A DNA stretch of 64,000 nucleotides from Candidatus Cloacimonadales bacterium. GTDB taxonomy: Bacteria; Cloacimonadota; Cloacimonadia; Cloacimonadales; JAFGVF01. The notes below the pieces were generated by a model. It had not been told where the DNA came from, did not search any database, and worked only from the letters and a program-made list of their open reading frames with translations. Location of the stretch: contig CAXXJV010000001.1 in the NCBI GenBank assembly GCA_963663475.2, positions 2,720,001 to 2,784,000 of the forward strand. The letters run 5' to 3'. Made by a program: the position numbers and the translations under genes. This document shows positions 9,618 to 29,197 of the stretch, one piece after another (position 1 is the stretch's first letter; every line of letters starts with the position of its first letter).

Positions 9618-11231
9618 TTAGTTTTCTTTCTTAAGAGTTTTGGAAACTGCATTTAGCAAATCTTCTGATGAGAATGGTTTTCGTAAAAAGAGAATACCTT
9701 GAGAAATTAATTTCTTTAGTTCATCTTTTTCTTTTGAGTAACCACTTGTGATAATGAAAGGTACCTGGCTATGGATACTTTTGAGTGATTCATATAGACT
9801 ATAGCCATCTCCATCAGGCAGGATTAAATCAGAAATAATTAAATCAATATTATTAAATTGCTCTTTAATAATTTCAGATGCAGAAGCAATGTCTCTACAA
9901 GCAACAACAGTAAAGTTATTCTTTCTGAGTATTTTGAGAACAACATTACAAATCAAATCATCATCTTCAATCAAGAGGACCTTTTCTTTTTTCCCTATAA
10001 TTCGAGTTTTACTCTTTGCGAGTTGGGCAATAGAATTAATAACATTTGCTTGATGAATAGGTAAGTAAATTTTAAAGACTGTTCCAAAGCCAATATTACT
10101 CTCAATATCAATAAAACCATTGTATTGTTTAACAATGCCTTGCACATTTGACAAGCCTAGACCTGTACCTTTACCTTCAGCTTTAGTAGTAAAGAAGGGT
10201 TCAAAAATCTTTTCAATATGTTCTTGAGAAATACCTACACCTGTATCTGCTACAGATAGTTTCAAGTATTTACCAGGTCTTCTGTCAAAATTATCTTTAA
10301 AATCATCAGCTTTGATTTCGATTTCTTCAGTTGATATTTTTATAGTTCCACCATTTTCCATAGCATCACGAGCATTTAAGCAGAGATTAAGGATAATTTG
10401 TTCAAATTGAATTTCATCAGCTTTAATTTTTATAGGATTACTAGAAAGTTTAAGGTCAATATTTATGTTTTCACCTATCAAACGAGATATCATTTTTCTC
10501 ATATAAGAAAGGGATTCATTTACATTTAAATCAACGAATTCAACTTCTTGCTTTCTAGTAAAGATTAAAAGCTGTTTTGTAAGAGAGGAAGCTTTATTGG
10601 CAGCTTGGATTATAGTTTCAATATTTTCAACATATACTTCATTACTCTCACCATAATCTAAACAGAGTTCAGCATTGCCGATAATTACTTGCAAAATATT
10701 ATTAAAATCATGAGCCATACCCATCGATAGGTGACCAATTGTTTCTAACTTAGAACGTTGTTCTTTACTTTTCCTAAGTTCTTCGAGCTCAGATATATCT
10801 GTAAATATCTCATAAAAGCCATCTATATTGCTGTGATGATAAATGGGAATAACCTTCATTTCATATTGTCTTGAAGCTAATAGCAACTTTTTTGTTATAA
10901 CTTTTCTTTTTATAAATGCTTCTTTAAAGGGAAGTTGAGGTTCATAAGAAGAAATTATCAAATCAGGTTCAGAAGTTTTACCAATTTCAATGTTAGGTAT
11001 TAAATCCCTTGCCATATAATTATACTCTTCAATCAAACCATCAAGATTTATCCTAATAGCAGGCAAATGCAGTCTGAAAAGGAGGTTATTATCAGTTTCT
11101 GTTTTTAAGAGATTGTTTTGCTTATTTTGGTCATTAGTAGGAGGTGTAGCTACCTGCTTATTTTTACTAACAAGCAGGTAAACTACCAAAGTAATTAAGA
11201 TAGTATTAATTACAATTAAGTAAATATCCAT
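9618..11231 (-). CDS. Hybrid sensor histidine kinase/receiver (CckA-like)
   Basis: [34 protein letters not shown]-terminal receiver (IEDD...SDLILP...KPF). Confidence 0.9.
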
Positions 11232-11240
11232 ATCTCTATC

Positions 11241-12701
11241 TTAGAACTTAAATTCTACAGTAAAAGAAAAGGTTTTTGCAATTTCATCTTCACCTTTTAT
11301 CTTACCATCATTATTCATATCAGAGTAACGTTCTTGATAATTACCTACTAAGTAAGAGTTGCCACCTAACTCGTAAGAAATTTTTCCAGTAACCGTTGCA
11401 TTCTCATTTCTAAAATGTTTGAAGTTAATATATTCTTTATTTCTTTGGGCATATTCAATTGAAGCTTGATTAATCTTAGGAATCATAGAAGTATCAGCTC
11501 TTAATCCAGCCCAGATAGATTTACCAGTTACAACATCTTCACCATACATATCTTGATAAGCTAAGTCAAAGAAGAATAATTGTCCAATATTAGCTGTAAT
11601 AGAACCATACCAACCAGTAGAAGCTTTTATACCATCAAGAATAGATGTTTTTGTATAGATTTCCTGACCTCTAACAAAAGCTCTTTGATCATCGTATAAA
11701 TAATCAAAGAAACCAGGGATAAATTCATCCTCAAATCTTCTTCCTTCTAATTTCATATCAAAAATAGCAAATTTAGCACCAAAACCAGGGAAGATGAATC
11801 CTTGACCATAATCTATTATTTTTGCATATTCAGCATAATGGTATAATTTAAAGTAATCATAATCTACTAATGGTAAAGTATAGTCTGTACCAACTATTGT
11901 TACATCTTCTTCTTTATCGTAGATTGGTTTATCATCTAATTGAATATCATCATCAAGAGGATCATAGATATTATCACCATCGGCATCAATATCAATTTCA
12001 TCAGGGAATCCATCTCCATCAGTATCAACCGCATAGTTGTTATCATCTGGGAAAGAATCAAAGATGTCAGGTACATTATCGCCATCTTCATCTTCAAAAC
12101 GCTTGTATTGATCAAGATCATGAGCAAAAGAAACTCCTACATCAAGCTGACTTAACAATGGGAAGTTGGAAAGCTCTAGAGGCTTAAAATGAGCTCGGGA
12201 AGCAAAGATATCCATTTTACTGAAATCTGCTGCAAACATTTCCATTCCAAAACCACTAATCTCAGTATTAAAACCAAAATAGCCACCAATCTTCTTACTA
12301 TCAGGATAATTCAACATGTTTGTATAACCATTAACTATTAGACCATTGGCTAAAGTGTAGGAAGGAAAAGATCCTACTAGAGCATAGAAAGGATCTCCCC
12401 TGTGGGCATAGCGTAAATAGAGTATTTTGTTAACATAGTCTTGCCATTCATCCCAATCTTCTTCCCTAATATCGCCTTCTCCAGTGATTAGAAAATCAAT
12501 ATCAAGTCCTAGACCAAATTTCCAGAATACAAGCTCAGGATTTAATCTAATTCTTGTGTATGTCTCACCATTAATAGTAGTAGCTCCAACAGAGCCTCCC
12601 ATTTGAAAACCTTCATCTTGAGAAACATCCATTCCACCTTCTTGACCTATAAGAAGAAGTGGGAAGATCATTAAAAAAAGTAGTATTATCTTTTTCATCA
12701 T
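11241..12701 (-). CDS. Exported, probably outer-membrane beta-barrel protein with Asp-rich Ca-binding (thrombospondin type-3-like) repeats
   Basis: Signal peptide; DEDGDNVPD...DTDGDGFPD...DADGDNIYD; ends FSFTVEFKF (terminal Phe). Confidence 0.6.
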   Translation of the reverse strand: MMKKIILLFLMIFPLLLIGQEGGMDVSQDEGFQMGGSVGATTINGETYTRIRLNPELVFWKFGLGLDIDFLITGEGDIREEDWDEWQDYVNKILYLRYAHRGDPFYALVGSFPSYTLANGLIVNGYTNMLNYPDSKKIGGYFGFNTEISGFGMEMFAADFSKMDIFASRAHFKPLELSNFPLLSQLDVGVSFAHDLDQYKRFEDEDGDNVPDIFDSFPDDNNYAVDTDGDGFPDEIDIDADGDNIYDPLDDDIQLDDKPIYDKEEDVTIVGTDYTLPLVDYDYFKLYHYAEYAKIIDYGQGFIFPGFGAKFAIFDMKLEGRRFEDEFIPGFFDYLYDDQRAFVRGQEIYTKTSILDGIKASTGWYGSITANIGQLFFFDLAYQDMYGEDVVTGKSIWAGLRADTSMIPKINQASIEYAQRNKEYINFKHFRNENATVTGKISYELGGNSYLVGNYQERYSDMNNDGKIKGEDEIAKTFSFTVEFKF

Positions 12702-12773
12702 TACCCCTTAAATTTTATTATTATTAAACTATTTTTTACAAATTATTATTATTAAGTCAAGAAAAAACTCTAC

Positions 12774-13865
12774 TTAATCTAATATTTGCATTTCAATTCC
12801 TAGCTCTTTTTGCATAACTTTAAGATTTTCTAGTAAAGCTGGCGTAATTGGAACACCCTTGTCTCTGATTTCTTTCTCTTTATAATACTCTTTCTCTCCA
12901 GCTATCCATATTTTATCTTTATTAGGAGCAACTTGAGACTTCTTTAAGGTGGTCATTATATCACCTGTAATTTTCTTAAAGTCTGCAATCTCAGTAAAAA
13001 AGTCAATATTAATAGCTAGGAAGAAATGACCCAGTTTATAAGGAATCCTATTTCCATCTTTGTCAAAGCCATGTAAGCCTTGCAAGTAAGCTCCATTTTG
13101 TAAAGCAGCACAAAGGATTTCTACCATAACACCTAGACTATAGCCTTTATGAGAACCTGTTTCTTCATCAGCACCTCCAATTGGCAACATAGCAGCTTGT
13201 TTAGAAATAAGATCTTTTAGTAATTGCTTAGTATCAGTGAAAGGCTTACCTTGTCTATCTATAGCCCAGCCAAGCGGTGTTTCTTTTCCTTCTCTATCTA
13301 AGACCTCTATTTTCCCTCTTTGGGAAATGGAAGTAGCACCATCAAAGAGGAAAGGGTATTCTAAGTTAGAAGGAGCTCCAAAGCAGATTGGATTTGTTCC
13401 TAACATTGGGTCAACCCCATTAGTTGGTGCTATAGAAGGTCTAGCATTAGTAAATGTTATCCCTATCATATCTTCTTGCGTAGCCATAGAAGCGTAATAA
13501 CCAGCTATTCCATAATGAGTTGAGTTTCTGACTACTACACAACCTATGCCATATTTTTTAGCTTTATCTATAGCTGTTTGCATAGCACGATGTGAGATTA
13601 CATGTCCCATACCATGATTTCCATCCCATACAGCAGTTGCATACTTATCCCTAATTATATCAATTTTTGTTTCAGGAAACTGAATCCCTGCTTTGATTCT
13701 ATCATAATACATCTTGCAACGTCCTATACCATGAGATTCTATACCTCTTAAGTCTGATTCAATTAAGACGTCAGCACATATTTTGGCTTCCTCTGCAGGT
13801 ACTTGCAACCTAGTAAATACTTCCACCATAAACTTATGAAGTTTTTCAACTGGTATTCTTAACAT
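12774..13865 (-). CDS. Ldh_2-family (malate/L-lactate/sulfolactate) dehydrogenase
   Basis: ESDLRGIESHG, NSTHYG, GTNPI and HKGY motifs. Start moved to ATG 13865 because it has an AGGGGG RBS and the track's TTG falls inside the promoter. Confidence 0.85.
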   Translation of the reverse strand: MLRIPVEKLHKFMVEVFTRLQVPAEEAKICADVLIESDLRGIESHGIGRCKMYYDRIKAGIQFPETKIDIIRDKYATAVWDGNHGMGHVISHRAMQTAIDKAKKYGIGCVVVRNSTHYGIAGYYASMATQEDMIGITFTNARPSIAPTNGVDPMLGTNPICFGAPSNLEYPFLFDGATSISQRGKIEVLDREGKETPLGWAIDRQGKPFTDTKQLLKDLISKQAAMLPIGGADEETGSHKGYSLGVMVEILCAALQNGAYLQGLHGFDKDGNRIPYKLGHFFLAINIDFFTEIADFKKITGDIMTTLKKSQVAPNKDKIWIAGEKEYYKEKEIRDKGVPITPALLENLKVMQKELGIEMQILD

Positions 13866-13950
13866 TTTTCCCCCTAATAATCTATTTATATTTTGCAATA
13901 AAGCTGATTAAATCTATCGATGTCAAGTTTTTTATAGCTTAATTTTTTAA

Positions 13951-14111
13951 CCCAGATAGTGTAATAGAGCTTTAGTGAAGAGTGCAGATTATTCTAGCAA
14001 AATAGCTTACAGAATTTTGACGCATATATTTTATATATTCGGAGAAATTATGGAAGCTACTTTTGCAGAAGAATATAGTGCTATTCACAAAGGTCTACTG
14101 CATTATTTGGG
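13951..14111 (+). mobile_element. Foldback MITE copy 4
   Basis: Aligns to copies 1-3; tttaa duplication at 13946-13950 and 14112-14116. Confidence 0.85.
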
Positions 14112-14214
14112 TTTAACTATTAACTTGCAAGATTCTTAATGATAAAAGCCCTCAGCAACTTAGCATAAAGATACATTTATAAGTAACTTTCTGTTTAGTA
14201 CTCTCAACTAAAAC

Positions 14215-16209
14215 TTATTTTTTTAGTTCATGTAAGTGATAAATATCAACTCCCTTATTTTTACCTTTTACGTATTCATTGCAGATAAATTCAACTTTTG
14301 CTTTATCTTTTAGTAAGTTTAAGGTAAATTCTGATATAATAATTTTATTTTTACTAGGATACTTTTTATTAGAAGCTTCTAAACGAGCTCCTAGGTTAAT
14401 CACATCACCAATGGCAGTATAATCAAAAACCTGCTCTGAACCTAAGTTTCCCACAACTGCTACACCAGAATTAACACCAATTCCGATTTCAATTATATCC
14501 TTACCTTCCTTGGCCCATTTTGCTTGAAGCTGAGTCAACCTTTCCCTCATAACCAGAGCAGTTTTACAGGCATTATAAGCATGGTTATCATCTTGTAAAG
14601 GAGTACCATAAAGAGCCATAATTTCATCACCAACAAATTTATCAATAATCCCCTTATTTTCGATAACTATTTTAGTCATTTCAGTAAGATATTCTCGTAA
14701 CATGGCTACAGTATCTTCCATGGGGTGGGATTCTGTATAAGTAGTAAAAGAGCGGATATCAGAGAAAAGAACAGAGATTTCCTTATTGGCTCCTCCATAT
14801 TGGAGTTGTTTAGGATCTGAGATAAGCTGATTAACTAATTCAGGTGCCATGTAGTGCTGGAAGGCTGATTTAATTTCTCTTTTTGCTTTAGCTTCTTGGA
14901 TATATTTTTCTATCAAGTTATATAGATAGATAATAAAGAGAGGCATAACAAATTCTAGTTTAGGGAGTATTAAGTTTGAGTATTTTAAAAGGGAAAGAGT
15001 AAGTAGGTAATGGATAAAAAGAATGATAATTAAAATAATTAGAGATTTATAAGCATTATATTTATGGAACAAGTAACTGGTAAAAATTAGAAAAATTAAG
15101 AGTGAAATGTAAAAAAAATAATGGTTAAGATAAAATATTAAATCATCAGCTAAGAGAGAGTCTAAGAAATTGGCATGTACTTCTACTCCAGGCATTATCC
15201 CGAAAGGAGTATGGAAGTTATCGTGGTGTTCTTTCAAGGTAGAACCGATTAAGACAATCTTATTGTGGAAGGCTTGTTTTTCTATAAGTTTTTCTAGGTT
15301 ACTTTTAGTTACTTCTTCAGTATCAATCCCCATATCAGTGAGTTTTTGACTTAGTTCATCATCAAGCTCGAAATCAGAAAAGAAGTCTAATTCTTCAGAT
15401 GTTAAGCTAGAGGAAAGATCTATCAAATCGATGAAAGAGTAGTAAGTTGAAGCAGGATTGATAGTATTATCCCCAGAAAAAGTTCCTGCTCTCCCCCTGT
15501 AGTTTATAGGAGTAATATAGTTTAAATAGTATGGTAGAACTTGCTCTCCACAAGTTATATTTTTTTTCTTTTTATTTACTTGTATCTGATTATTAGTATA
15601 GAGGGAAAAAGCCTTGAGAGCCAGAGAATAGATTTCTTGGTCATTTAAGGTATCCATTACTTGATATTTTCTGAGGAAGTTATCAATATCAGTGAAATTA
15701 GATACAAGCCCCAGTTTAGGCTTGGATTGCATGATACGCTTATTTGGTAGTAGTAAAAAGTGATTTTTTCCTTCTCTTTCAATCTTACAGGCGTGAATGA
15801 CATTACTGTTTGCCGATATAGCTCCTAAATCAAAATCATCTCTTTCAAGTTCTTGATTTACTAATGAGACCAAGTCTTGATTTTCCTGACCTAGTAGAGA
15901 GATTTGAGCTGTTTCAGGGAATTGGACATCAAACACAATAACCTGTCCCCCAGCTCTTTGGATATTTTCGATTAATTGAATATAAAGGGATCTAGGAAGA
16001 GGCCATTGCATATTTAGAGTACGCATTGTTTCTTCATCAATAGCAACAATTGCTACTTTCTCACTAGTAGAAATATGACCTCTTTGTTGCATAAAGAGGT
16101 CATATAATTTCGCTTCTAGTTGGAGAAATATATTAGTAAAAGAGCTTAGAAAGGTAAATAAAAATACAATTAAGGCTACAATTACAAATTTATATCTCTT
16201 TAAAAACAT
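14215..16209 (-). CDS. CHASE2-domain class III adenylate cyclase
   Basis: IVAIDEET...WPLPR (CHASE2), PGVEVHAN, three TMs, FSDIRSFT, DKFVGD, YTAIGDVINLGARLE (Lys/Thr indicate adenine specificity). Confidence 0.92.
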   Translation of the reverse strand: MFLKRYKFVIVALIVFLFTFLSSFTNIFLQLEAKLYDLFMQQRGHISTSEKVAIVAIDEETMRTLNMQWPLPRSLYIQLIENIQRAGGQVIVFDVQFPETAQISLLGQENQDLVSLVNQELERDDFDLGAISANSNVIHACKIEREGKNHFLLLPNKRIMQSKPKLGLVSNFTDIDNFLRKYQVMDTLNDQEIYSLALKAFSLYTNNQIQVNKKKKNITCGEQVLPYYLNYITPINYRGRAGTFSGDNTINPASTYYSFIDLIDLSSSLTSEELDFFSDFELDDELSQKLTDMGIDTEEVTKSNLEKLIEKQAFHNKIVLIGSTLKEHHDNFHTPFGIMPGVEVHANFLDSLLADDLIFYLNHYFFYISLLIFLIFTSYLFHKYNAYKSLIILIIILFIHYLLTLSLLKYSNLILPKLEFVMPLFIIYLYNLIEKYIQEAKAKREIKSAFQHYMAPELVNQLISDPKQLQYGGANKEISVLFSDIRSFTTYTESHPMEDTVAMLREYLTEMTKIVIENKGIIDKFVGDEIMALYGTPLQDDNHAYNACKTALVMRERLTQLQAKWAKEGKDIIEIGIGVNSGVAVVGNLGSEQVFDYTAIGDVINLGARLEASNKKYPSKNKIIISEFTLNLLKDKAKVEFICNEYVKGKNKGVDIYHLHELKK

Positions 16210-16211
16210 AT

Positions 16212-18644
16212 TTAGAATTTCTGTACTATATTAAAATACCAGTTAACAGAAGAATAATCAGATTGATTAGCTTGATAGTCTCTATCTTTCAAGCTTATGC
16301 TAGAAGTTAAAGAAGTAAGCCTGAATGGATAATAGCTAAGTCCAAAGGATGTAGCTTGGTAAGAATTATCGGCATCACTATCCTTAATGTTTTCATTATT
16401 GCTAAATCTAAAATCAAAAAATGGGACAAGTTTTAGATAATCAATATCATATTCAAGTTTTAACCGCATTGAAGACCTATTCCATTCTTCTTCTTGATAG
16501 TAGAATTGATCTTCTTTAGCACTAGTAACACCAGCAACATGACCTGTAGATTTAGTAAAGCTATAGGAGATTTGGGTTTTAAGAGGAATAGCTGTCATTT
16601 TGGAAATATACCTTAAGTAGTAGCTATCATTCTCAAACTCATACATGTCTCTTAAATCATCTTCATCTACACTGTTTTGATAATCAAAGTCAAGACTAAA
16701 GGGTAGATATGGAACTTTATCAAATGTATAACCAATACCTGCACCATAGGCAAAACTTCTATATTCTTGGGCTTCATCAATCACAGCTAATGGATCATCT
16801 TCATTAATATCAAAAACATCATTGTTTTCGATACTTGTTCTTCCCTTAGTAAAGTTTGCTCTTAAGACTGGTAATTTCTCTTTTCTGAAAACTGAATTAA
16901 CTTGATAATTACTATGAACATTTGTTGTTGCTAGATTTTCAGAAATATTATCACTTACTCTATTATATGAGAAGTCAACAAATACTGTATTATGGAAGTT
17001 TATATTATCTGCAAAAGTAAGTTCATGGGTATCTGTATTAACATTCTTAGCAGACAATGAATTAAAAGAAGAGCCTACTCGTGAGTAGTTAATGGAAAAT
17101 AAATTTCCTGCAATGTATAAACTAGAATATACCTTATAAGCCATGTTTGAAGAAGTCAAACTAAGTGGTTCAGTATTCTTGTTGATAATAAAAAATCCAT
17201 CAATAGATTGGGGGTCAAAGGGTAAGTCTCCTCCCACATCATTTTCCAGTTCATCTTCAGAGATAGCACCATCAATAATATTTGAATTATAGGCACTAAT
17301 AGCAAATTCAGCCCCAAAATTAAATAACTTGCGAGGTGATGATAATTTAACATCAGAAGAAAAAACTAGATTATCAACTGGATTTATTATTTGCTTATCT
17401 TGCTGGTCCTCTTTAGTATCAGTCTGCGCTATATAATAGTCTGAATAATCTAATGACGCTATTTTATCCTTATTCTTGGCTAGATTTAAGCCAAATTGAA
17501 AAGCATTTTGATTACCTAGAGCTAGTCTTACAGCCCCTGATTCCCTTTTGAATGTTCCAGGTATATACTGTCCACTGTCTTCTTTAGTAGAAATTGAACG
17601 GGCACTAGTTCCCCAATAACTTTCTAGTAAGAAATATTTGAAATGTAACTTACTACCAAAACCTCTGATATTGGCAGAATTTAAAGTAAATTCAGAGATA
17701 TAAGGACTCTTATCCCCCAGATAAATATCGAAATGTGGTACTTGAACATCAAAAGAGTATCTGTTAACAGATTGCCTATCAGAATTCTCTAAAGAAGATA
17801 AATAGATTCTGGAATTAACTCTACTATAAGAGTTATTTCCACTTACAGTAAATATTGCTGAATGGTTATTAGATGATGATTCAGAAGACCTGTCATTAGA
17901 ATCTTCATAGGAGAAGCTATTAGTATTTCCTTTATAATTAATATTTCCCCGTAGATTATAAGGGAGCTCATAAGTAAACATCTTCTGTTTAACCGAAACT
18001 TTCAATAGGCCTGAATCAAGATTTTGACCTGATAATTTCTTGCCAGTAATACGGAAATTAAAAGATTCCTTGATGTCTTCCACCTTATAAACTAGTAAAG
18101 TAGGAGTAACAATAAGATTATTGGTTTGGTCTTTCCCATTAATATACAAGTTTATCGAGTCATAATCAATCTCATCTTTTAAGCTAAAAAGAGAAACTGA
18201 AAGTGAGAAATCACTATCTTGTTCAACATCTTCTAAATCATTGAGAACAACAAAATCACTAACAATTTCTTCCCTAATAACCTGAACCAATATTGGACTC
18301 AGAGTTGCCTGTTGACTAGGATAAGTCACAACTTGATTATCAATTGTTTTAACTTCTATATAGTATTCTAAACCTCTAGCATATTGAGATATTGAGATTG
18401 GAACTTGATAATCACCATTCCGACCAGATTGAGGATCTACAGTAACAATTTCATAAGCTACTTCTCCTCTTTCCCGATAATAAACAAGAAAGTCTGTAAC
18501 TTCCTGCCAATTACCATCTAAAAAAATATCTAGCGTTAAAATAGAATCTTTATAAGCAACATAAGGCTGATTATGTTCAATAATTATCTCAGAATATAAC
18601 GTTATACTTAATACATATAATAAGAAAAATATAATTTTTTTCAT
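16212..18644 (-). CDS. Large exported protein with N-terminal Ig-like region and probable C-terminal beta-barrel
   Basis: Signal peptide; alternating amphipathic strands; ends WYFNIVQKF. Confidence 0.55.
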   Translation of the reverse strand: MKKIIFFLLYVLSITLYSEIIIEHNQPYVAYKDSILTLDIFLDGNWQEVTDFLVYYRERGEVAYEIVTVDPQSGRNGDYQVPISISQYARGLEYYIEVKTIDNQVVTYPSQQATLSPILVQVIREEIVSDFVVLNDLEDVEQDSDFSLSVSLFSLKDEIDYDSINLYINGKDQTNNLIVTPTLLVYKVEDIKESFNFRITGKKLSGQNLDSGLLKVSVKQKMFTYELPYNLRGNINYKGNTNSFSYEDSNDRSSESSSNNHSAIFTVSGNNSYSRVNSRIYLSSLENSDRQSVNRYSFDVQVPHFDIYLGDKSPYISEFTLNSANIRGFGSKLHFKYFLLESYWGTSARSISTKEDSGQYIPGTFKRESGAVRLALGNQNAFQFGLNLAKNKDKIASLDYSDYYIAQTDTKEDQQDKQIINPVDNLVFSSDVKLSSPRKLFNFGAEFAISAYNSNIIDGAISEDELENDVGGDLPFDPQSIDGFFIINKNTEPLSLTSSNMAYKVYSSLYIAGNLFSINYSRVGSSFNSLSAKNVNTDTHELTFADNINFHNTVFVDFSYNRVSDNISENLATTNVHSNYQVNSVFRKEKLPVLRANFTKGRTSIENNDVFDINEDDPLAVIDEAQEYRSFAYGAGIGYTFDKVPYLPFSLDFDYQNSVDEDDLRDMYEFENDSYYLRYISKMTAIPLKTQISYSFTKSTGHVAGVTSAKEDQFYYQEEEWNRSSMRLKLEYDIDYLKLVPFFDFRFSNNENIKDSDADNSYQATSFGLSYYPFRLTSLTSSISLKDRDYQANQSDYSSVNWYFNIVQKF

Positions 18645-18654
18645 TTTCTACCTC

Positions 18655-20079
18655 CTAATACTCTAAGATTATTGTCTTTATTGAACCATCATCATTCTCA
18701 AAGTAGATTTTCATTGTATTATCATACTCGGTAGATTCTAACTCTTCTTCAACCTCAGTTGGAACTTCTTCAGTCTCATATCTTTCCACTTGACCATCTT
18801 CAGTCGAGCTTACAGTATTTCCCTTAGTAACAAGACTTTTCTCTTTAGATTTCTTGTTTTCTACTTCTACCTTACCAGAAAATCCGATAACTTTAGTAAT
18901 ACCATCTTTTAATTCAACTAAGAATTCAGTACCTCTGACTGATGCTATTGTTGAAGTTGTTGAAACAGAGTATTTACCAGCTATTTTATTGTTCACTGTT
19001 GATAGAATTGAGCCACCTTTTAACTCTAATTCTTTGTTCAAAAGCTCATTATCTTCTTCTGCACTAATCAAAACTTCACTATTGGAAAAGACTCTTATTT
19101 TACTTGAGTTATCTACCATTTTAATCAAGGCTAAAGACTTATCATTAGTACGAATTCTATCTCTATTTTGTAAAAGCGTACCAACAGAACATTCAAGGGT
19201 TTCCTGACCTCTGACCAAAGTTAAATTTCCTTTGATTTTTAAAACCACAGCAATAGGAGTGTCGTCATTGGGAGCTGGTCCTCTTAAGCTTTTAGGACTA
19301 AGATCAGCAGCTTCTTTCTTTTCAACTTCAACAAGTGGTTTTTCAGGACTACTTTCTTTGTCTTTAGAATATGGGGTAGCAAAAGAAGAATAACTTTGTT
19401 CCATATGACTAGATACTATAGGACTTAATACATGTTTTAACTTTTCTATATCTTCTTTAGACTGAACCTTTAAATCTGAAATAGGTCCAATAACAATACT
19501 ACGACCACCACTTTCCTGCCTACCTTGCTCCTGTTTTTTTTCTGGAAATGCTTTTTCAATAATCTGGCCATCATCTGAAGATATCAATGATTGATTAGCT
19601 GATAAACTATGAGTCTTTCCAGATATCTTATTCAACACATCTACATTACCTTCAATTACACTTACTTGGGTTCCTTCTCCAGTAACAGCTACTTCGAAAT
19701 TAGTACCTCTTACCGACGCCACAGTAGAATTAGTCTCTACTATATATGAACCACTTATTTTATCCTTTAAATCATTAAGAATCTTTCCAGCCTTTAAGCT
19801 TACTGTCGTATTCAAACTATCTACTGATTTTATAGTAATGGATGAATTAGGAAAAACTCTTAAAGAAGCATTTGTATATTTATAAAATATTAAGGCATAT
19901 GAATCGTTCCCAGAATTAATACTGCTATTATTTTCTAGTGAATCACCTGCCTTGTAACTCACTTCTACAGAATCAACAAGTGAATATATGTTTCCTTGAA
20001 TCTTTGTAAAGACAGCTATTTCCTCTGCCATTGCGAAACTAGTTACTAGGATTAGTAATAAAATTAGAGCTCTTTTCAT
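18655..20079 (-). CDS. Exported protein with two tandem FecR domains
   Basis: Two internal repeats each with ASVRGT.F.V (STVASVRGTNFEV; STIASVRGTEFLV); cleavable-looking signal ending SFAMA. Confidence 0.85.
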   Translation of the reverse strand: MKRALILLLILVTSFAMAEEIAVFTKIQGNIYSLVDSVEVSYKAGDSLENNSSINSGNDSYALIFYKYTNASLRVFPNSSITIKSVDSLNTTVSLKAGKILNDLKDKISGSYIVETNSTVASVRGTNFEVAVTGEGTQVSVIEGNVDVLNKISGKTHSLSANQSLISSDDGQIIEKAFPEKKQEQGRQESGGRSIVIGPISDLKVQSKEDIEKLKHVLSPIVSSHMEQSYSSFATPYSKDKESSPEKPLVEVEKKEAADLSPKSLRGPAPNDDTPIAVVLKIKGNLTLVRGQETLECSVGTLLQNRDRIRTNDKSLALIKMVDNSSKIRVFSNSEVLISAEEDNELLNKELELKGGSILSTVNNKIAGKYSVSTTSTIASVRGTEFLVELKDGITKVIGFSGKVEVENKKSKEKSLVTKGNTVSSTEDGQVERYETEEVPTEVEEELESTEYDNTMKIYFENDDGSIKTIILEY

Positions 20080-20089
20080 TATCTCCTCC

Positions 20090-21211
20090 TTACTCTACAC
20101 TTACTTCGATTTCATAGGTTGAGAAAAGCTCTCTTATTCTATCAACAGCCTCTTTACCATAGACAGTCTTACCATTAATCTGAATCCCATCTTTAGGAAG
20201 ATAACCAGCATTTAATAGTACGTTTATTTCAGCAATATTCAAGTTGAGTAAGTTGCTCTCCAATTGTTCTTGGAAAGCATTAGGAACCTTTTCTGAAGGA
20301 GCACAAGTAAATTGGAAAACATTATAAGAACTTGCTATGTATTGGTCATGACCTGCTTGGTTTAGACTTTCCTCTCCTATATATTTTACCTTCACACGCC
20401 ATGCATAAAATTTGTTTTCTTGAAAATTATATGTTGGATTATATACAGACATATTATTTACCCATTCTTCTTCTACAAGTCTTCCATTATACTCTATATT
20501 TGAAGGATCAAGTTCATATTCTTGATCAAATTCTTTTATCTCAACTACATAAGAATTATTAAATCCTGAAGTATTCCAATTAAAGATAATGGGTTTGGAA
20601 ATTAATGGAATATTAGTAGCACCTACTACATGTCCAGGAGATATTAGCCTAACTGATTGAATTCCTCTAACAGCAAAAGAAACTACTGTAGATGCCCCTT
20701 GATATAGTGAATTGTCTGGTACAATCTCAATTTCTATCCTATATTGTCCATCAGGAAAACGACCTGTTTCTAAAAGGAAATCTTCAAACTGAGAATTATT
20801 TTCCATAACATCATCAAAAGAGAAATCACTTTCTGCTTCAAAAAATCTGTTGCTTTCAGATGTGATAAGATCCCTGTTAGTAACATTGAAACTTGAGTTA
20901 AACTGGTTAGCAGGACTAAAGCCATCTATAGGTCTAAGACTAGTACCAGTTAATAGATTACCATTCCAAAAGAGATCAATGTTTACATCATATTCAGCCT
21001 GATCACTAGCATCATTGTCTGCCTGGGGTGGAATGGAAATATTAAGATTGAATAAAATTGGTTGCGAATAAGGTTGAGAAGGATCAAAGTAAGATACCTT
21101 CAGTATATTAAGAGTTGACTGACTTGTTGATCCAGATACCATATAGGTATTATTAGCAAATATACTTGCTGTTACAAGTAAAAATAAGAGAAAAACTATT
21201 GTTTTCTTCAT
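20090..21211 (-). CDS. Exported hypothetical protein, possible Fn3-like region
   Basis: Signal peptide; FNWN...YVVEI...YAWRVKV pattern; overlaps the ddl stop. Confidence 0.55.
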   Translation of the reverse strand: MKKTIVFLLFLLVTASIFANNTYMVSGSTSQSTLNILKVSYFDPSQPYSQPILFNLNISIPPQADNDASDQAEYDVNIDLFWNGNLLTGTSLRPIDGFSPANQFNSSFNVTNRDLITSESNRFFEAESDFSFDDVMENNSQFEDFLLETGRFPDGQYRIEIEIVPDNSLYQGASTVVSFAVRGIQSVRLISPGHVVGATNIPLISKPIIFNWNTSGFNNSYVVEIKEFDQEYELDPSNIEYNGRLVEEEWVNNMSVYNPTYNFQENKFYAWRVKVKYIGEESLNQAGHDQYIASSYNVFQFTCAPSEKVPNAFQEQLESNLLNLNIAEINVLLNAGYLPKDGIQINGKTVYGKEAVDRIRELFSTYEIEVSVE

Positions 21212-22131
21212 AACTCCTCCTTAGAAAGAGATAAATCAATTATGTTAAGTAAAAGTGTTTCAAAATTAATTCCTTTAGCTTTAACAGCCATAGGGGTAAG
21301 ACTTAACGAAGTCATTCCAGGAAGAGTATTAATCTCAAGAAAATAAAAATCTTTTCCATCATATCTAAAATCTACTCGTCCATATACTTTGCCAGAAATT
21401 CTCTTAAAGAGATTATAAGCCATTAATTGAACTTTGCTAGATTTATCTTGAGGAATCTCTGCTGGACATATATATTCTGTGGAACCTTTAGTATATTTAT
21501 TTTGGTAATCATACCAACCTTTTTTAGGTCTTACTTCAATAACGGGATAAGTTTTATCACCTAGGATAGTCACAGTTAATTCTTTACCTGGGATAAACTC
21601 TTCAATCAAGACTTTATCATCATGTTTAAAAGCATCTTTTAGAGCTGAGGGTAAGTCTTTTGCATCTTCAACTTTGGAAATACCTAAAGAAGAGCCTCCA
21701 TTATTAGGTTTAACAATATAAGGAGGGGGAAAATCAAGATTTATATTAGTAAGAGAGCTTGCTTTCTCAACAATAATAGCTTTAGGAGTTTTGATTCCAA
21801 TATCCTTAGCAATCAGTTTGTTAAGATATTTATCCATAGCTATTTTACACGCTAATGAACCTGAGCCAGTAAAGGGTAGCTTAGCGAGTTCGAAGAGAGC
21901 TTGCATATTACCGTTTTCACCATCTCCCCCATGAAGTCCATTAAAAACAATATCAGCATTATACTGACGGATTGCTTGTAAGAAATCTTCTACAGTTGGA
22001 AAATTACAAGGGTCAATTTTTATACATTCACAATTGGCATTTTGTAAGGCCTTGTAAATTTCATTAGCACTATTTAGAGATACCTCTCTCTCATTAGAGA
22101 ATCCACCTTCAATAATTACGATTCTTTTCAT
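21208..22131 (-). CDS. ddl: D-alanine--D-alanine ligase
   Basis: GGFSNEREVSL, LHGGDGENG, KPNNGGSSLG, YDYQNKY, LEINTLPGMT. Confidence 0.95.
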   Translation of the reverse strand: MKRIVIIEGGFSNEREVSLNSANEIYKALQNANCECIKIDPCNFPTVEDFLQAIRQYNADIVFNGLHGGDGENGNMQALFELAKLPFTGSGSLACKIAMDKYLNKLIAKDIGIKTPKAIIVEKASSLTNINLDFPPPYIVKPNNGGSSLGISKVEDAKDLPSALKDAFKHDDKVLIEEFIPGKELTVTILGDKTYPVIEVRPKKGWYDYQNKYTKGSTEYICPAEIPQDKSSKVQLMAYNLFKRISGKVYGRVDFRYDGKDFYFLEINTLPGMTSLSLTPMAVKAKGINFETLLLNIIDLSLSKEEL

Positions 22132-22199
22132 ATATCCTCTTCTCTCATTATACTTTTCTATTAAACAAATTATAGAGAGATTATAAAAATAGTCAATAT

Positions 22200-23135
22200 T
22201 TAAAGTTCAATTCTATAAAATACTTTTAGGTCAGCTCCTAATGAGGCTTTGAATCTTGCTATACTATCTGTATTTGCACCACATAAATCGAAGATTTTGA
22301 AGTCACTTTTCAGATAAAGACAAATTTGGTGGATAATGAGAGTTGATAGACCATTAGATAGTTCCTTTAGGTCAGTAGAAGCTAACCAAGCATAGGCAAT
22401 TTTATTCTTGTAATCAAGAATGCAGAACATAGTTGAGACTATTCTTTGCTGACTATCTAATATATTAAATTGTTTAACATACATTAAATCTGTTAATTTT
22501 GTTAAGAAGTCATGTAAGACTTTTTCATCTATATCAAAGTTCCAGTCTTGTCTCTGTTTTGTTCCTTGAAGCAGTTTTAAGTAGCTAGGAATATCAGTAT
22601 GTTGGGAGAAAGTATAAGGAAGTCTTTCAGCTTTTCTGAGAGAAGCTCTTTGTCGTTTAAAATAATTATCAATAGAGTAATTTTCAAGGTCAAAAGTATA
22701 AGTATAGAGTGTTTTAGAGCTTAATCCAGACCAGAGAAAGCCTCTAATATCAGAGGTTAAAGGAGAGAGATTTTTACTTATTTTGAAATAATATTTGTGG
22801 TAGTATTCTGATATTTTCTGATAAATTTCCAGTTTTTGGAGCTGGTTCTCATTTGGATACTTTCTTTGAGGAAGAAAAGTTTCAATAGGCTGATAATAGA
22901 CTATTCTAGGATTAATAATTGAAGGTATTCCTAGTATTTTTTTTTCAAAAGAACCTGTTATTGCTAGGAGTTGATTATTAGTTAGATTTCTAACAGTCAA
23001 GTACTTAGCTTCTAGTTTAAAATACTCATTTAGTAATGATAAAAAATCAGGATAGAGATAAACATTAGTAATCAGCTGTGAATCTGCTAACTCTGAGATT
23101 TTGCAAGACTTTACTATTAGCTCCATCTTATCCAA
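22200..23135 (-). CDS. GNAT/FemAB-like acyltransferase
   Basis: RASLRKAE and FDLCGANTDSIARFKASLG motifs. Confidence 0.7.
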   Translation of the reverse strand: MDKMELIVKSCKISELADSQLITNVYLYPDFLSLLNEYFKLEAKYLTVRNLTNNQLLAITGSFEKKILGIPSIINPRIVYYQPIETFLPQRKYPNENQLQKLEIYQKISEYYHKYYFKISKNLSPLTSDIRGFLWSGLSSKTLYTYTFDLENYSIDNYFKRQRASLRKAERLPYTFSQHTDIPSYLKLLQGTKQRQDWNFDIDEKVLHDFLTKLTDLMYVKQFNILDSQQRIVSTMFCILDYKNKIAYAWLASTDLKELSNGLSTLIIHQICLYLKSDFKIFDLCGANTDSIARFKASLGADLKVFYRIEL

Positions 23136-23487
23136 TTAATTTGCGAGCAACCTCTAACAACTCTTTCATTCTAAATGGTTTTATAATATATTCAAATACA
23201 CCATCTACCATGGCTTTATAAGCGCTATCAACAGTAGGGTATCCTGTCATAATGACTATTTTAAGATTTGGATCTTTAGAAAGGAGTGATTCCATTAATT
23301 CAATTCCTCCAATATCAGGCATAACAAGGTCAATAATAGCTAAGGAATATTGGCCAGGTTTAAAACTTTCAATTGTCTCGAGGGCGGAATTAGGTATTTC
23401 AACGTCAAAGCCATTTTTGGTTAAATATTGGCCTACAACATCACGCAACAATTGATCATCATCAACTATTAATATTTTTTTACTCAT
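23128..23487 (-). CDS. Single-domain response regulator (receiver only)
   Basis: ILIVDDD, IIDLVMP, MTG, KPF. Confidence 0.92.
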   Translation of the reverse strand: MSKKILIVDDDQLLRDVVGQYLTKNGFDVEIPNSALETIESFKPGQYSLAIIDLVMPDIGGIELMESLLSKDPNLKIVIMTGYPTVDSAYKAMVDGVFEYIIKPFRMKELLEVARKLIG

Positions 23488-23566
23488 ATTCTCTCCAATT
23501 ATATGAACTTAATCTAGGTATAAATTAATTCTCTTAGCACGATTTGTCAAGATTTTATATTTTTAC

Positions 23567-24485
23567 TTATTCAAAATCTAGCTTTAGAATAAGAGGTCTA
23601 TGGTCTGAAATTGTAGTAAAATAATTACTTATCAGCTTATCATACTTGATAGTATAACAGGTTGAAAGTGGCTTACCAAAGCTGGGAAAAAGATTTTGAT
23701 TAATGATAATATGATCTAGATGAGATGGCCAGTTAGGATAAGAAAAATCACTTGTATTCAGAGACATATCATAATCTGCAAAGATGAAGTTATCATCATC
23801 AAGAAAAGATGTGAAGACGTTTGTTGAAACATCTTCATGGAACTGGTCATTAAAATCACCAACTAAGATAACATTTTCATCATTAAAATTTTCAAGAATA
23901 TAGTTATGTAGTTGATTCAAAGCTTCCAACCTTCTAACCTCTTCATCCCAGTCATCCCAGTAGTCAATTTCATTATCTCCACCAGCTTTAAGATGGTTAT
24001 TAATAACAATAAAATCTATATTTTTCCAAGTTATATCTAGTATATAAGGTTCTCGAGGAAAGAGTCTGCTATCTTGTCTAAAAATTTCATAAGCATTATT
24101 GATAGTAAGTCTATCCTTGTGGTAGATATAGCCAAGAATTGGATTATAGTAAGAATCTTCATCATTAGGATCATAGATGTAATTTTCAGAAGCTATAACA
24201 TCATAATCATTGAGCATAAGTCCTAATTGTTGAAAGTCATTAGTATTAGTAATTTCCTGGACTGCAATTAAATCAGCATTTAGGAGGGGAATTTGGTACT
24301 GAAGTTCATTAATAGTGTTGAGATCATCAAGAGGGAATTCTTTCAGGTTCCAGGTTACGAAGGAAACAACGTTTTCATTATATTCACTAACAATTGTATT
24401 ATTAGTAATGGCATTATCAGTACCACAGCTAAGGATGACTAAAGTTGCCATTATAAAAATGACAACTTTAATCAACAAGATATTC

Positions 24486-24499
<14 letters not shown>
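23567..24499 (-). CDS. Endonuclease/exonuclease/phosphatase (DNase I-like) lipoprotein
   Basis: ILSC lipobox; TWNL, VQEI, NHLK, GDFND, LDHI, SDHRP. Confidence 0.88.
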
Positions 24500-26378
<1,879 letters not shown>

Positions 26379-26450
26379 AAAGTTCTCCTACTTTATAATA
26401 TTTTTTTATAATCCAATTTGTTTTCAACCACTTACTTGTCAATACTAAAT

Positions 26451-26491
26451 CTTAGCTCCCCAGCAAATATTTAGATTGCTAAGGAGCTAAG
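26451..26491 (-). terminator. Hairpin downstream of the 896-aa gene
   Basis: cttagctcc..agcaa / ttgct..ggagctaag inverted repeat. Confidence 0.5.
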
Positions 26492-26506
26492 TTTGAAATA
26501 GTGTTT

Positions 26507-29197
26507 TTATTTGATACTTATAAATTTCAAAACTTGACTTTCATCATCAGCATCAAGTTTAATCAAGTAAACTCCAGAAGCATGTTGCGAGATACTATCC
26601 CACTTAAAGTTGTGATTTCCTGCTTTAAGACTCAAGTGGTTAGCCAGTTGAACAACCTTTTGTCCCTTAAGATTATAGATTGATAAGGAAACTTGAGCTG
26701 GAGAAGTAAGATCAAAACTAATAGAACTTGCTCCCCTGTGCAGTGAAGATTTGTGAGGATTAGGATAAATAACAACATTATCCATAACATTAGTTTTAGC
26801 TATTGCATCATTAGCATTTGAGGTATTAATTGCAAGATTCACTTCTGTTACTGAGTTAGCTTGAACTTGGGTTTGGACATAAACAATTTTCTTATTATCT
26901 AAGGTAACTACTTGCTTGATAAGTCCATTTTCTACTTCAAGACTACCATCAATATCTTGCATCTCAAACTTTAACAAAAGATCAGAGAAGGCAATATTAT
27001 GAAAATTCACTACTTCTGCCCTATTGCTACTTGCAGATCCATTATTAGGAAAATCATAATTAACTTGGAAATTCTCTCCAGAAGAACCAGCTGTTACAGA
27101 AGCCTGAGGTTGTAAAACGCCATTACTAACCTTAATAATGCGATATTTTCTATTTCCATCACAAACAGCCCCAGTGGCTAAATCATAGGGAGCTTGACTA
27201 ATAGAGCCCTCATCATAATGAATATGACCACTTAAAGCCATCTGAGCATTCTGAGAGTATAGATTTATTTGGTCAGAAAAATCATAGTGATAAAAAAGAA
27301 CTTTAGTAGCTTCTGCTGAAGCTAATTCAGAATTAAGCCAAGTCATCTGGTTGTAAGTAAAACTTTCATCGCCAAAAACACTTGGGAGATAATCATCATA
27401 ATTAATATAGCTTTCGAGTCCGATAAACCTTATTCCATCATAAGTAAATGAATAGTTTTGAGTTCTGTAAGGATAAGAACCATTTGGATTTTCTAAAATA
27501 TCCCAACCGAAGAAGTTGTGCCAATTTGTACGAGAAGAGCCATCAGGCATTGGAGTATCTTGCCAGCCACCAATATCGTGATTACCAGAGACCAAGTAAA
27601 CTGGTGCTTCTAGTAAGCCTAACATATTCTTAGCTATAGAATAATATCGGGCATCTAAATATTCTTCGAGTTCCCCTTCATTAACAATATCACCAGTAAA
27701 GAGAACAAATTTTGGGTTAAGTAGGTTAATATCTTCAATAACTGTTAAAAAATCTTCCATTTCAGTCATATCATTATAGTAGTTGCTATCATGAGAGAAA
27801 AGGTGAGTAGGAAGATGAGTATCTGTTATATGAATAAAATACCAATCATCTTCAGGTATCTCTTCTATTTTTACAGCATTTTTGACATGATCTACGTCTA
27901 ATCCAGGAGCAGTAACTATTAAATCAAAGAGCTCATAGAAAGCTGGTTGAGGAGTCTCAACTGTTAAAATATGCCAGTCACTAACTGAATCATAATAGCT
28001 AGATACAATATCTAGTTCCAGACTATAATCTTCATATTGTAAAGAAGCCTGCCAGCCACTAGTAGTTACAGGAGCAGAGGCCCAGATTTCGAAACTTTCA
28101 CCAGGATGACTTATCTGAGGTACAGATAAGATAGGTCTCTGCACAGTAGTTAGAATATCACCCTCTTCTGATGAACTTATGGAAATGTTTAGATTACCAA
28201 AATTGAAAGAATCTATATCTTCTCCATTTAGAGAACACTCGAAAGCATAAAAGGTAGTATTCCCCATACCTATGGGATTAAAACTAAGGTTTAACAGGGT
28301 AGAACCACTAGTAGATGTTGCGTTCCCAGTATAATCAATTTCGATTGTATTAGAAGTACTAGAGTATTGACTATTAGAGAAAACTGCAGAAGTATAATTA
28401 AGGCCTGTAAATTCAAGCATATTATTATTATAAGACAGTTCAATGTGAAATGAGTTTATTTGAAGATCATCCTGATGAAAAATCTGTAAAGGAACATAAA
28501 ATTCTTCATCTTGATTTACAAAAATATCATCTGTTGAAATTGTTATTGGCATATCACCTAAAATAAGATCATCTGTAGATCTAGGATTTAAGTAATAATC
28601 TCCATATGAATAACTTATAACGCCAGTTAAGGAGGCAATCACACTGCCTACTATAGCATCAAAACCAGTATTCATTAAAGAAATTGCACCTGTACCTACT
28701 CTGCCTGTACCTGTGCCATCATTTATTTTCAGGTTACCATATTGATCATAAGATTCAATGATTTGAGCTTGCTGAACTCTTACCAAGACACCTTCATAAG
28801 CTTCGTTACTATTAAGCTGACCTGTGGTAATTATTGTTGGTTGAACTGTATTACCAGTGGATAAAAGTGATAGGTTTGAAATATCAGTTATTTCTGTAAA
28901 GCCCCAATATTCAGTAACTTCTCCAGTTAATGAGACTTCATCACCCACATTAAGATTTGAGTTATTATAAACATATATTCCCTTCCAAGCTCCCCCTTCT
29001 GGCATTGAAAGAAAGAAACGGCTATTACTATAATTATCAGCAGTTACAATACCAGTTACAGTAACGGTCTGTCCCTCATAGGGAGAAGGATAAGTCCCAT
29101 CAGAGCCAGGGTCTGTCGTATATTGCAAGTCATATATTGTTAGTCCATAAACATTAGAAACTATCAGCAGTAAGGTTATTAAAATTAATTTATACAT
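26507..29197 (-). CDS. Secreted multidomain metallophosphoesterase with OB-fold-like N-terminus, cohesin-like domain and FlgD/T9SS-type C-terminal domain
   Basis: SPYEGQTVTVTGIVTA; ITDTH, TGD, GNHD, GHIH; YPNP...SIYNLKGQKV...WD...SGVYLIKL. Confidence 0.8.
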   Translation of the reverse strand: MYKLILITLLLIVSNVYGLTIYDLQYTTDPGSDGTYPSPYEGQTVTVTGIVTADNYSNSRFFLSMPEGGAWKGIYVYNNSNLNVGDEVSLTGEVTEYWGFTEITDISNLSLLSTGNTVQPTIITTGQLNSNEAYEGVLVRVQQAQIIESYDQYGNLKINDGTGTGRVGTGAISLMNTGFDAIVGSVIASLTGVISYSYGDYYLNPRSTDDLILGDMPITISTDDIFVNQDEEFYVPLQIFHQDDLQINSFHIELSYNNNMLEFTGLNYTSAVFSNSQYSSTSNTIEIDYTGNATSTSGSTLLNLSFNPIGMGNTTFYAFECSLNGEDIDSFNFGNLNISISSSEEGDILTTVQRPILSVPQISHPGESFEIWASAPVTTSGWQASLQYEDYSLELDIVSSYYDSVSDWHILTVETPQPAFYELFDLIVTAPGLDVDHVKNAVKIEEIPEDDWYFIHITDTHLPTHLFSHDSNYYNDMTEMEDFLTVIEDINLLNPKFVLFTGDIVNEGELEEYLDARYYSIAKNMLGLLEAPVYLVSGNHDIGGWQDTPMPDGSSRTNWHNFFGWDILENPNGSYPYRTQNYSFTYDGIRFIGLESYINYDDYLPSVFGDESFTYNQMTWLNSELASAEATKVLFYHYDFSDQINLYSQNAQMALSGHIHYDEGSISQAPYDLATGAVCDGNRKYRIIKVSNGVLQPQASVTAGSSGENFQVNYDFPNNGSASSNRAEVVNFHNIAFSDLLLKFEMQDIDGSLEVENGLIKQVVTLDNKKIVYVQTQVQANSVTEVNLAINTSNANDAIAKTNVMDNVVIYPNPHKSSLHRGASSISFDLTSPAQVSLSIYNLKGQKVVQLANHLSLKAGNHNFKWDSISQHASGVYLIKLDADDESQVLKFISIK

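Follow-up and report, generated by a model that had tools for sequence, protein, structure and literature searches.

A candidate trans-envelope cAMP signalling cassette with separate FecR, barrel and CHASE2 cyclase genes in Cloacimonadota

We analysed a window of 64,000 nucleotides from the genome of a Candidatus Cloacimonadales bacterium of the phylum Cloacimonadota (assembly GCA_963663475.2, contig CAXXJV010000001.1, positions 2,720,001 to 2,784,000), in which four consecutive genes code for a secreted Ig/FN3 protein, a secreted double-FecR protein, a predicted outer-membrane barrel and a CHASE2 class III adenylate cyclase. We regard it as likely that this cassette is a trans-envelope cyclic AMP (cAMP) signalling module of the NsrA-CyaK type distributed over separate genes, in which the FecR head of an outer-membrane complex contacts CHASE2 and sets the activity of the cyclase. 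FecR is proposed as the partner of the cyclase because the two co-occur, because a Gly-Thr (GT) segment of FecR is lost together with the cyclase and because a duplication of FecR goes along with insertions in CHASE2, all of which is suggestive.

Anatomy and conservation of the cassette

The four genes are coded on the minus strand and follow ddl, the D-Ala-D-Ala ligase gene (21208-22131, minus strand, identified by Pfam). The open reading frame of the 373-residue secreted protein (20090-21211), whose Ig/FN3 assignment comes from an AlphaFold2 model, overlaps ddl by 4 bp. Gaps of 10, 10 and 2 bp then separate it from the genes of the 474-residue FecR protein (18655-20079, two Pfam FecR matches), the 810-residue barrel protein (16212-18644, AlphaFold2 model) and the 664-residue cyclase (14215-16209, Pfam CHASE2 and Guanylate_cyc matches). 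This is the compact arrangement described in an initial annotation of the window made from its sequence. The FecR gene and the CHASE2 gene are each the only one of their kind in this 99% complete genome, and hence the cassette is its sole CHASE2 system.

Of 201 Cloacimonadota genomes scanned, 171 gave a match to CHASE2, while the barrel and Pfam FecR were each detected in 168. Sixty loci centred on barrel matches, picked for family spread and long contigs (59 genomes, 12 families), were fetched. A further 39 loci, from outside the phylum, came from a search in which distant relatives of the secreted protein served as queries. The genes of the secreted protein and FecR precede that of the barrel in all 60 phylum loci, and the cyclase follows in 54 of them. 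Outside the phylum, in loci labelled KSB1, Kryptonia, Bacteroidetes or Balneolaceae, all four genes occur in this order in 27 of the 39 loci, i.e. in 27 of the 27 long enough to include a cyclase; seven are truncated where the contig or locus stops, two have a distant relative only and three have none. The synteny on which the initial annotation depended is thus widespread. In a few families the cyclase lies apart from the other genes, as might be expected of chance neighbours, but that explanation is refuted by the same order over 12 phylum families and in KSB1, Kryptonia and Bacteroidetes-labelled loci, and we give it practically no credence. The ddl gene is adjacent in 48 of the 60 phylum loci and in none of the 39 others; it is therefore a habitual neighbour in the phylum, outside the core of the cassette. 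Similarly, the double FecR is not the norm of the family, as 55 of the 60 phylum loci have a single FecR domain of ~225 residues.

The cyclase comprises CHASE2 (residues 14-358) and Guanylate_cyc (476-660) regions, with one N-terminal and three C-terminal membrane segments, the third of which is weak. It aligns to Pseudomonas aeruginosa CyaB and other adenylate cyclases in the PDB. Residues D484, K524, D528, T598, N605 and R609, which we take to be catalytic or adenine-specifying class III residues, are each shared by 81-82 of the 82 cyclases that were aligned, in agreement with the intact active site seen earlier.

The 810-residue protein had been suspected to be a membrane barrel, and its AlphaFold2 model (82-sequence alignment, mean predicted local distance difference test score (pLDDT) 88.7) supports this. 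The predicted structure has two N-terminal beta-sandwiches (~21-123 and 130-218) followed by a barrel (230-810) of 26 strands, as counted from the DSSP list, with a terminal Phe and no apparent plug domain. Its top structural match is MtrB (6r2q_B; Z 19.3, root mean square deviation 5.3, 470 aligned residues, 11% identity), followed by a continuum of other barrels from Z 18.2, ushers among them. The modelled resemblance to MtrB is one of size and fold, not of family membership. No Pfam or NCBIfam family was matched, nor were TPR, FecR or TonB-receptor Pfam domains; thus, the protein adds an unannotated large barrel family.

The model of the 373-residue protein (119 sequences, mean pLDDT 91.8) predicts an Ig-like sandwich (21-183), an FN3-like sandwich (184-304) and a small C-terminal alpha/beta domain, and a structural search gave generic FN3/Ig matches only (best Z 8.8). 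The protein has no Pfam match, including to DUF928. Nine of its 119 relatives match DUF928 weakly (best E 4e-4), and one longer relative does so above the cut-off. The second sandwich may thus be distantly DUF928-like, a weak sequence link that the common FN3 fold could also produce. The secreted-protein query also retrieved one Acidobacteriota locus (L101) with DUF928 beside CHASE2. An Atlas search with the 373- and 810-residue proteins returned unnamed clusters only. There is one cysteine in the secreted protein and one in the FecR protein.

Two Chitinophagaceae-type loci (L098:7105-20269 and L099:7318-20419) combine a distant relative of the secreted protein with a different, 780-800-residue barrel-like gene and genes for proteins of 160 and 2200 residues, mostly devoid of Pfam annotation and without FecR or cyclase. 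Homology of their barrel to the 810-residue barrel was not shown (probability 9%), and these loci are possibly an unrelated export system that reuses the same sandwich protein.

The only hydrophobic segment of the FecR protein is signal-like and N-terminal (residues 5-23). This leaves no space for a cytoplasmic part, in agreement with the initial annotation, and we found neither a lipobox cysteine nor an internal membrane segment or anchor. Domain D1 (~19-175), of a derived type, and domain D2 (~272-440), of the ancestral type, are separated by a linker of ~97 residues, and the protein ends in a hairpin-like C-terminal motif. The Gly-Thr self-cleavage motif is present, as a sequence motif, in both domains (G125-T126 and G383-T384). 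No solved structure of a FecR-domain relative was found by sequence search.

This anatomy bears on whether the protein might serve a classical FecA-FecR-FecI pathway acting in trans with an unlinked extracytoplasmic function (ECF) sigma factor. The Pfam FecR matches, a weak match to the Escherichia coli FecR model PRK09774 (30.7 bits, cut-off 385) and sigma70 region-2 genes elsewhere in the genome could be taken to favour it. However, the absence of a cytoplasmic anti-sigma part and of an internal membrane segment contradicts such a pathway, and none of the 15 sigma70 region-2 matches of the genome falls in the window, which bears out the earlier remark that no ECF sigma factor lies nearby. 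TonB receptor barrels have 22 strands, fewer than the 26 counted here, and no TonB-receptor family is matched. We consider this pathway very improbable.

Joint loss and joint change of FecR and the cyclase

In 190 of the 201 genomes, FecR and CHASE2 are either both found or both missing; for barrel and CHASE2 this holds in 178. Five genomes of genus g8 (90-99% complete) keep the three upstream genes, and the cyclase was not found in them by family and protein searches, one of which had no positive control. The Gly-Thr of the TVASV(K/R)GT segment is kept in 125 of 131 aligned FecR domains. The six FecR domains devoid of it are those of these five genomes and of a cyclase-less second cassette of genome G186, and they form one clade; G157 is a seventh case. 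Of the 26 FecR columns that are otherwise conserved, nine are lost in the cyclase-less clade, and six of the nine fall within the single 10-column stretch of the TVASV(K/R)GT segment; the N-terminal half and the C-terminal hairpin are retained; losses elsewhere amount to one of 17 conserved columns in the secreted protein and seven of 57 in the barrel. Distances to outgroups have increased by 83% for FecR, 38% for the barrel, 13% for the secreted protein and 16% for ddl. As far as sequence comparison can tell, this pattern of co-loss points to the ten-residue FecR segment as the probable contact with CHASE2. By analogy, based on the family match and on a proposal for Leptospira (PMC13719327), the GT motif may be the equivalent of the self-cleavage site of E. 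coli FecR.

Some other g8 genomes have a complete cassette (L020, L056, L141 and L142; L020 and L056 without the ddl link), with a FecR that groups with genus g6, which suggests reacquisition after loss of the native cyclase.

Eight cassettes have two FecR domains. They belong without exception to genera g1 and g3 of the family to which the window belongs; genus g2 and all other families have one domain. In a tree built on 47 of the 131 domains, D1 and D2 are sister groups with support that is not firm (87/89). An origin of D1 from a fusion of FecR with a second barrel, described below, was rejected on the same 47 domains (D1 grouped with eight fusion domains, approximately unbiased test p 0.02). 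Judging from the sequences, the double FecR is a lineage-specific, recent tandem duplication. D1 keeps ASVRGT and has lost the equivalents of D307 (8/8), D323 (7/8) and K349 (7/8). All eight double-FecR cassettes also harbour three CHASE2 insertions, within residues 97-125, 236-264 and 264-322 of the 664-residue cyclase. These segments are 29, 29 and 58-60 residues long, compared with 10-11, 19 and 32-37 in the single-FecR cassettes of the phylum, and lie outside the range of 47 single-FecR cassettes. The secreted protein, barrel and ddl of the eight showed no comparable insertions, in a test that is less sensitive for them. The relay from FecR to CHASE2 proposed in the initial annotation is thus supported as far as evolutionary coupling to CHASE2 rather than to a sigma factor is concerned. 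The two repeats are a recent duplication, and an arrangement of one FecR domain per partner does not hold across the family.

The association of FecR with the cyclase also appears, from sequence, to outlast changes of the outer-membrane partner. The window codes for a second, unrelated and unannotated barrel-like protein (11241-12701, minus strand; fold inferred from sequence), with acidic thrombospondin-like repeats according to a weak NCBIfam match. It is FecR-less here, is present in 185 of the 201 genomes, including those without the cassette, and is probably outside this operon. In parts of three families, however, it is fused behind a FecR domain (L116 and 19 fetched loci). Genomes G054, G146, G030, G163 and G135 have the cyclase, and the barrel and secreted protein were not found in them (the secreted-protein search had no positive control). 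The sole FecR match of each is such a fusion, and ddl abuts the cyclase in the first three. The fusions occupy at least two separate places on the FecR tree.

Two loci of family f3 (L118:8284-15743 and L119:8160-15620) have a second CHASE2 cyclase after genes for a 1530-residue TPR/NHL protein and a 223-residue secreted protein. An N-terminus there resembles, by eye, the first half of the FecR fold, with no Pfam FecR match.

Candidate mechanism, output and surroundings of the cassette

In the signalling mechanism that we favour, the 26-strand barrel, the Ig/FN3 protein and FecR would form an outer-membrane-anchored complex, as the invariant gene order suggests. The N-terminal half and the C-terminal hairpin of FecR, both of which survive cyclase loss, would tether FecR to this complex, and the TVASV(K/R)GT strand-loop would dock on the periplasmic CHASE2 domain, as co-loss suggests. 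A change in the barrel, e.g. upon binding of a ligand or cargo in or on its unplugged lumen, would alter the FecR-CHASE2 contact and thereby switch the cyclase. Self-cleavage at Gly-Thr may contribute, by analogy with classical FecR, and the two FecR heads of this lineage might, speculatively, engage a cyclase dimer or a remodelled sensor.

A broader version, which is possible but which we hold more tentatively, is that the FecR domain is a general plug-in ligand of CHASE2, with the self-cleaving GT segment as docking switch. Addition of this domain would suffice to couple various outer-membrane inputs to one cyclase, namely the 26-strand barrel with the Ig/FN3 protein threaded in its lumen, the fused second barrel, or NsrA, and the double head would cross-link a cyclase dimer. 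If true, the long-sought ligand of CHASE2 would be a protein, and cell-surface signalling would have a branch that is independent of sigma factors.

Several observations weigh against a cAMP signalling module of this kind. The upstream triple persists intact without the cyclase in g8, and therefore it does something else as well. The barrel also accelerates in the cyclase-less clade (the 38% given above), and the GT loss is one event in one clade, so that these genomes are not independent. The fragmented genomes G072, G087, G097 and G093 keep an intact GT, and no CHASE2 was found in them; in the first three a contig ends inside the barrel gene, and the cyclase may be unassembled. Conversely, Pfam FecR was not matched in seven of the genomes with CHASE2; five of the seven are 73-88% complete, and one match is weak. 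The cyclase lies elsewhere in the genome in G055, G069 and G141, and no barrel was found in G031, which keeps ddl and the other three genes of the cassette. The FecR duplication is likewise a single event in one clade, and the insertion test is weaker for the secreted protein (23 anchors) and the barrel (62) than for the cyclase (156). Finally, the two cyclic nucleotide-binding matches of the genome are stand-alone proteins of 163 and 178 residues.

No CRP-type regulator was found in the genome, and the output is probably not classical CRP. Cyclic nucleotide-binding genes occur in 195 of the 201 genomes, including cyclase-less ones, and no effector is singled out. Two further genes for 1250-residue proteins with class III cyclase domains (G000:C1:503923-507702 and 2305272-2309027) make other sources of cAMP possible.

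The persistence of the triple bears on an alternative to which we assign a minor but real share, namely that it is primarily an outer-membrane transport or assembly machine, an open barrel with the Ig/FN3 protein as plug, chaperone or cargo. The cyclase would then be an accessory that reports on the state of the machine or on the integrity of the envelope. MtrB, the nearest fold of the barrel, sheathes a partner protein, and ushers match as well. The order of the triple is the same in all 60 barrel-centred loci of the phylum, and the triple outlives the cyclase where the latter is lost. In addition, ddl stays adjacent after rearrangements, and monitoring of envelope integrity would fit that link. 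On the other hand, it is specifically FecR that decays upon cyclase loss, the ddl link was not seen in any of the 39 loci from other phyla, several genomes that have retained the cyclase gave no match to the triple, and the genome analysed here has its own SprA translocon. The corresponding SprA-like type IX gene (G000:C1:1089911-1094245) scores above the family cut-off, and its presence disfavours the 810-residue barrel as a stand-in type IX translocon. A gene in the window (26507-29197) ends, by eye, in type IX sorting domain-like sequence.

We think it rather unlikely that FecR acts as a diffusible periplasmic ligand that self-cleaves at Gly-Thr and releases a fragment that binds CHASE2. 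Such cleavage is reported for E. coli FecR (PMC12036975) and proposed for Leptospira (PMC13719327), the GT motif is precisely what decays with the cyclase, and the protein has no membrane anchor. Nevertheless, FecR and a barrel share one polypeptide in NsrA, as they do in two or more separate fusion groups of Cloacimonadota, the E. coli fragments stay associated until signalling (PMC12036975), and the C-terminal hairpin is kept without the cyclase.

With respect to the surroundings of the cassette, a promoter-like site (TTGACT-16-TATAAT, 22169..22196, minus strand) lies in the 68-bp gap before ddl. It matches 11 of 12 consensus positions and is one of the two best among 73 sites found, with 61 expected by chance; as a sequence match, it only hints at a possible start of a ddl-to-cyclase operon. 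Upstream of ddl (22200-23487), the window has genes for a stand-alone receiver protein and for a 311-residue protein that no Pfam family matches, and the two precede ddl in 18 of 61 loci. Between the cyclase and a dehydrogenase gene is an element of ~170 bp (13946-14117), one long hairpin with inverted ends. It resembles a miniature inverted-repeat transposable element, with 268 blastn matches across the genome, of which the top 25 show 93-100% identity. An Rfam search of positions 10000-27000 of the window, which include this element, gave no match. Parts of the cassette were also met in a marine-sediment study, in three of its metatranscriptome runs; these are contigs and do not show transcription or co-transcription.

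Comparison with known systems

The initial annotation presented the cassette as an undescribed system. This is not supported, as NsrA-CyaK of Sinorhizobium meliloti is described and FecR-CHASE2 pairs are in print for Campylobacterota (PMC9239204) and Burkholderia (PMC5192318). FecR genes clustered with CHASE2 sensors or cyclases are also reported for other groups (PMC9599517), and the signal sensed by CHASE2 was stated to be unknown in 2016 (PMC5192318). No description of this particular cassette was found in the literature searched; subscription papers and supplements were outside its scope and may cover the FecR-CHASE2 pairing further.

The closest parallel is NsrA-CyaK (and CyaD1/D2) with Clr, in which signal perception needs both NsrA and the CHASE2 cyclases (PMC7529298, PMC13001267). 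In S. meliloti, nsrA lies directly upstream of cyaK, and NsrA combines FecR, TPR and barrel in one chain. In both systems, the gene that immediately precedes the CHASE2 class III cyclase codes for an outer-membrane barrel, and the periplasmic FecR domains are homologous. The N-terminal FecR domain of NsrA aligns with the window FecR, GT included (hhalign probability 98.7%, E 2e-16), and CyaK is homologous to the 664-residue cyclase over its full length (28% identity over 574 columns). In contrast, no homology was detected between the NsrA barrel and the 810-residue barrel (probability 0.4%, profile against one sequence). The cassette differs further in that its FecR is secreted as a protein of its own, TPR was not found and an Ig/FN3 protein is present in addition; the genome yielded no CRP-family cAMP receptor. 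It is therefore a split-gene cousin of NsrA-CyaK, not a member of the NsrA family.

In Campylobacterota, a CHASE2 cyclase is clustered with a FecR-domain outer-membrane protein, and the two were proposed to form one pathway; that cluster also has a phosphodiesterase and a TPR protein (PMC9239204), neither of which the cassette has. The LysM-FecR and CHASE2 histidine kinase operon of Burkholderia and Pseudomonas (PMC5192318) likewise places a secreted FecR-domain protein beside a CHASE2 sensor without a sigma factor, but its output is a kinase, its input domain is LysM and it is described without a barrel. E. coli FecA-FecR-FecI shares a periplasmic FecR domain with a Gly-Thr motif (cleaved at G181-T182; PMC12036975) acting downstream of an outer-membrane protein; unlike it, the cassette has no membrane anchor, anti-sigma domain or sigma factor, and its output is a cyclase. 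MtrB, the best structural match of the barrel, is only ~1 Z above other barrels. The barrel matches no MtrB/PioB sequence family, and the cassette has no cytochrome; the single cysteines of the secreted and FecR proteins do not make either of them a multiheme partner.

The wiring of the cassette is thus already known from rhizobia, and what is new here is the unannotated channel and helper protein and the doubled FecR of this lineage. The cassette is kept in several little-studied phyla and is widespread in uncultured ones, and it narrows the FecR-CHASE2 coupling to a short segment that is testable with two small soluble domains.

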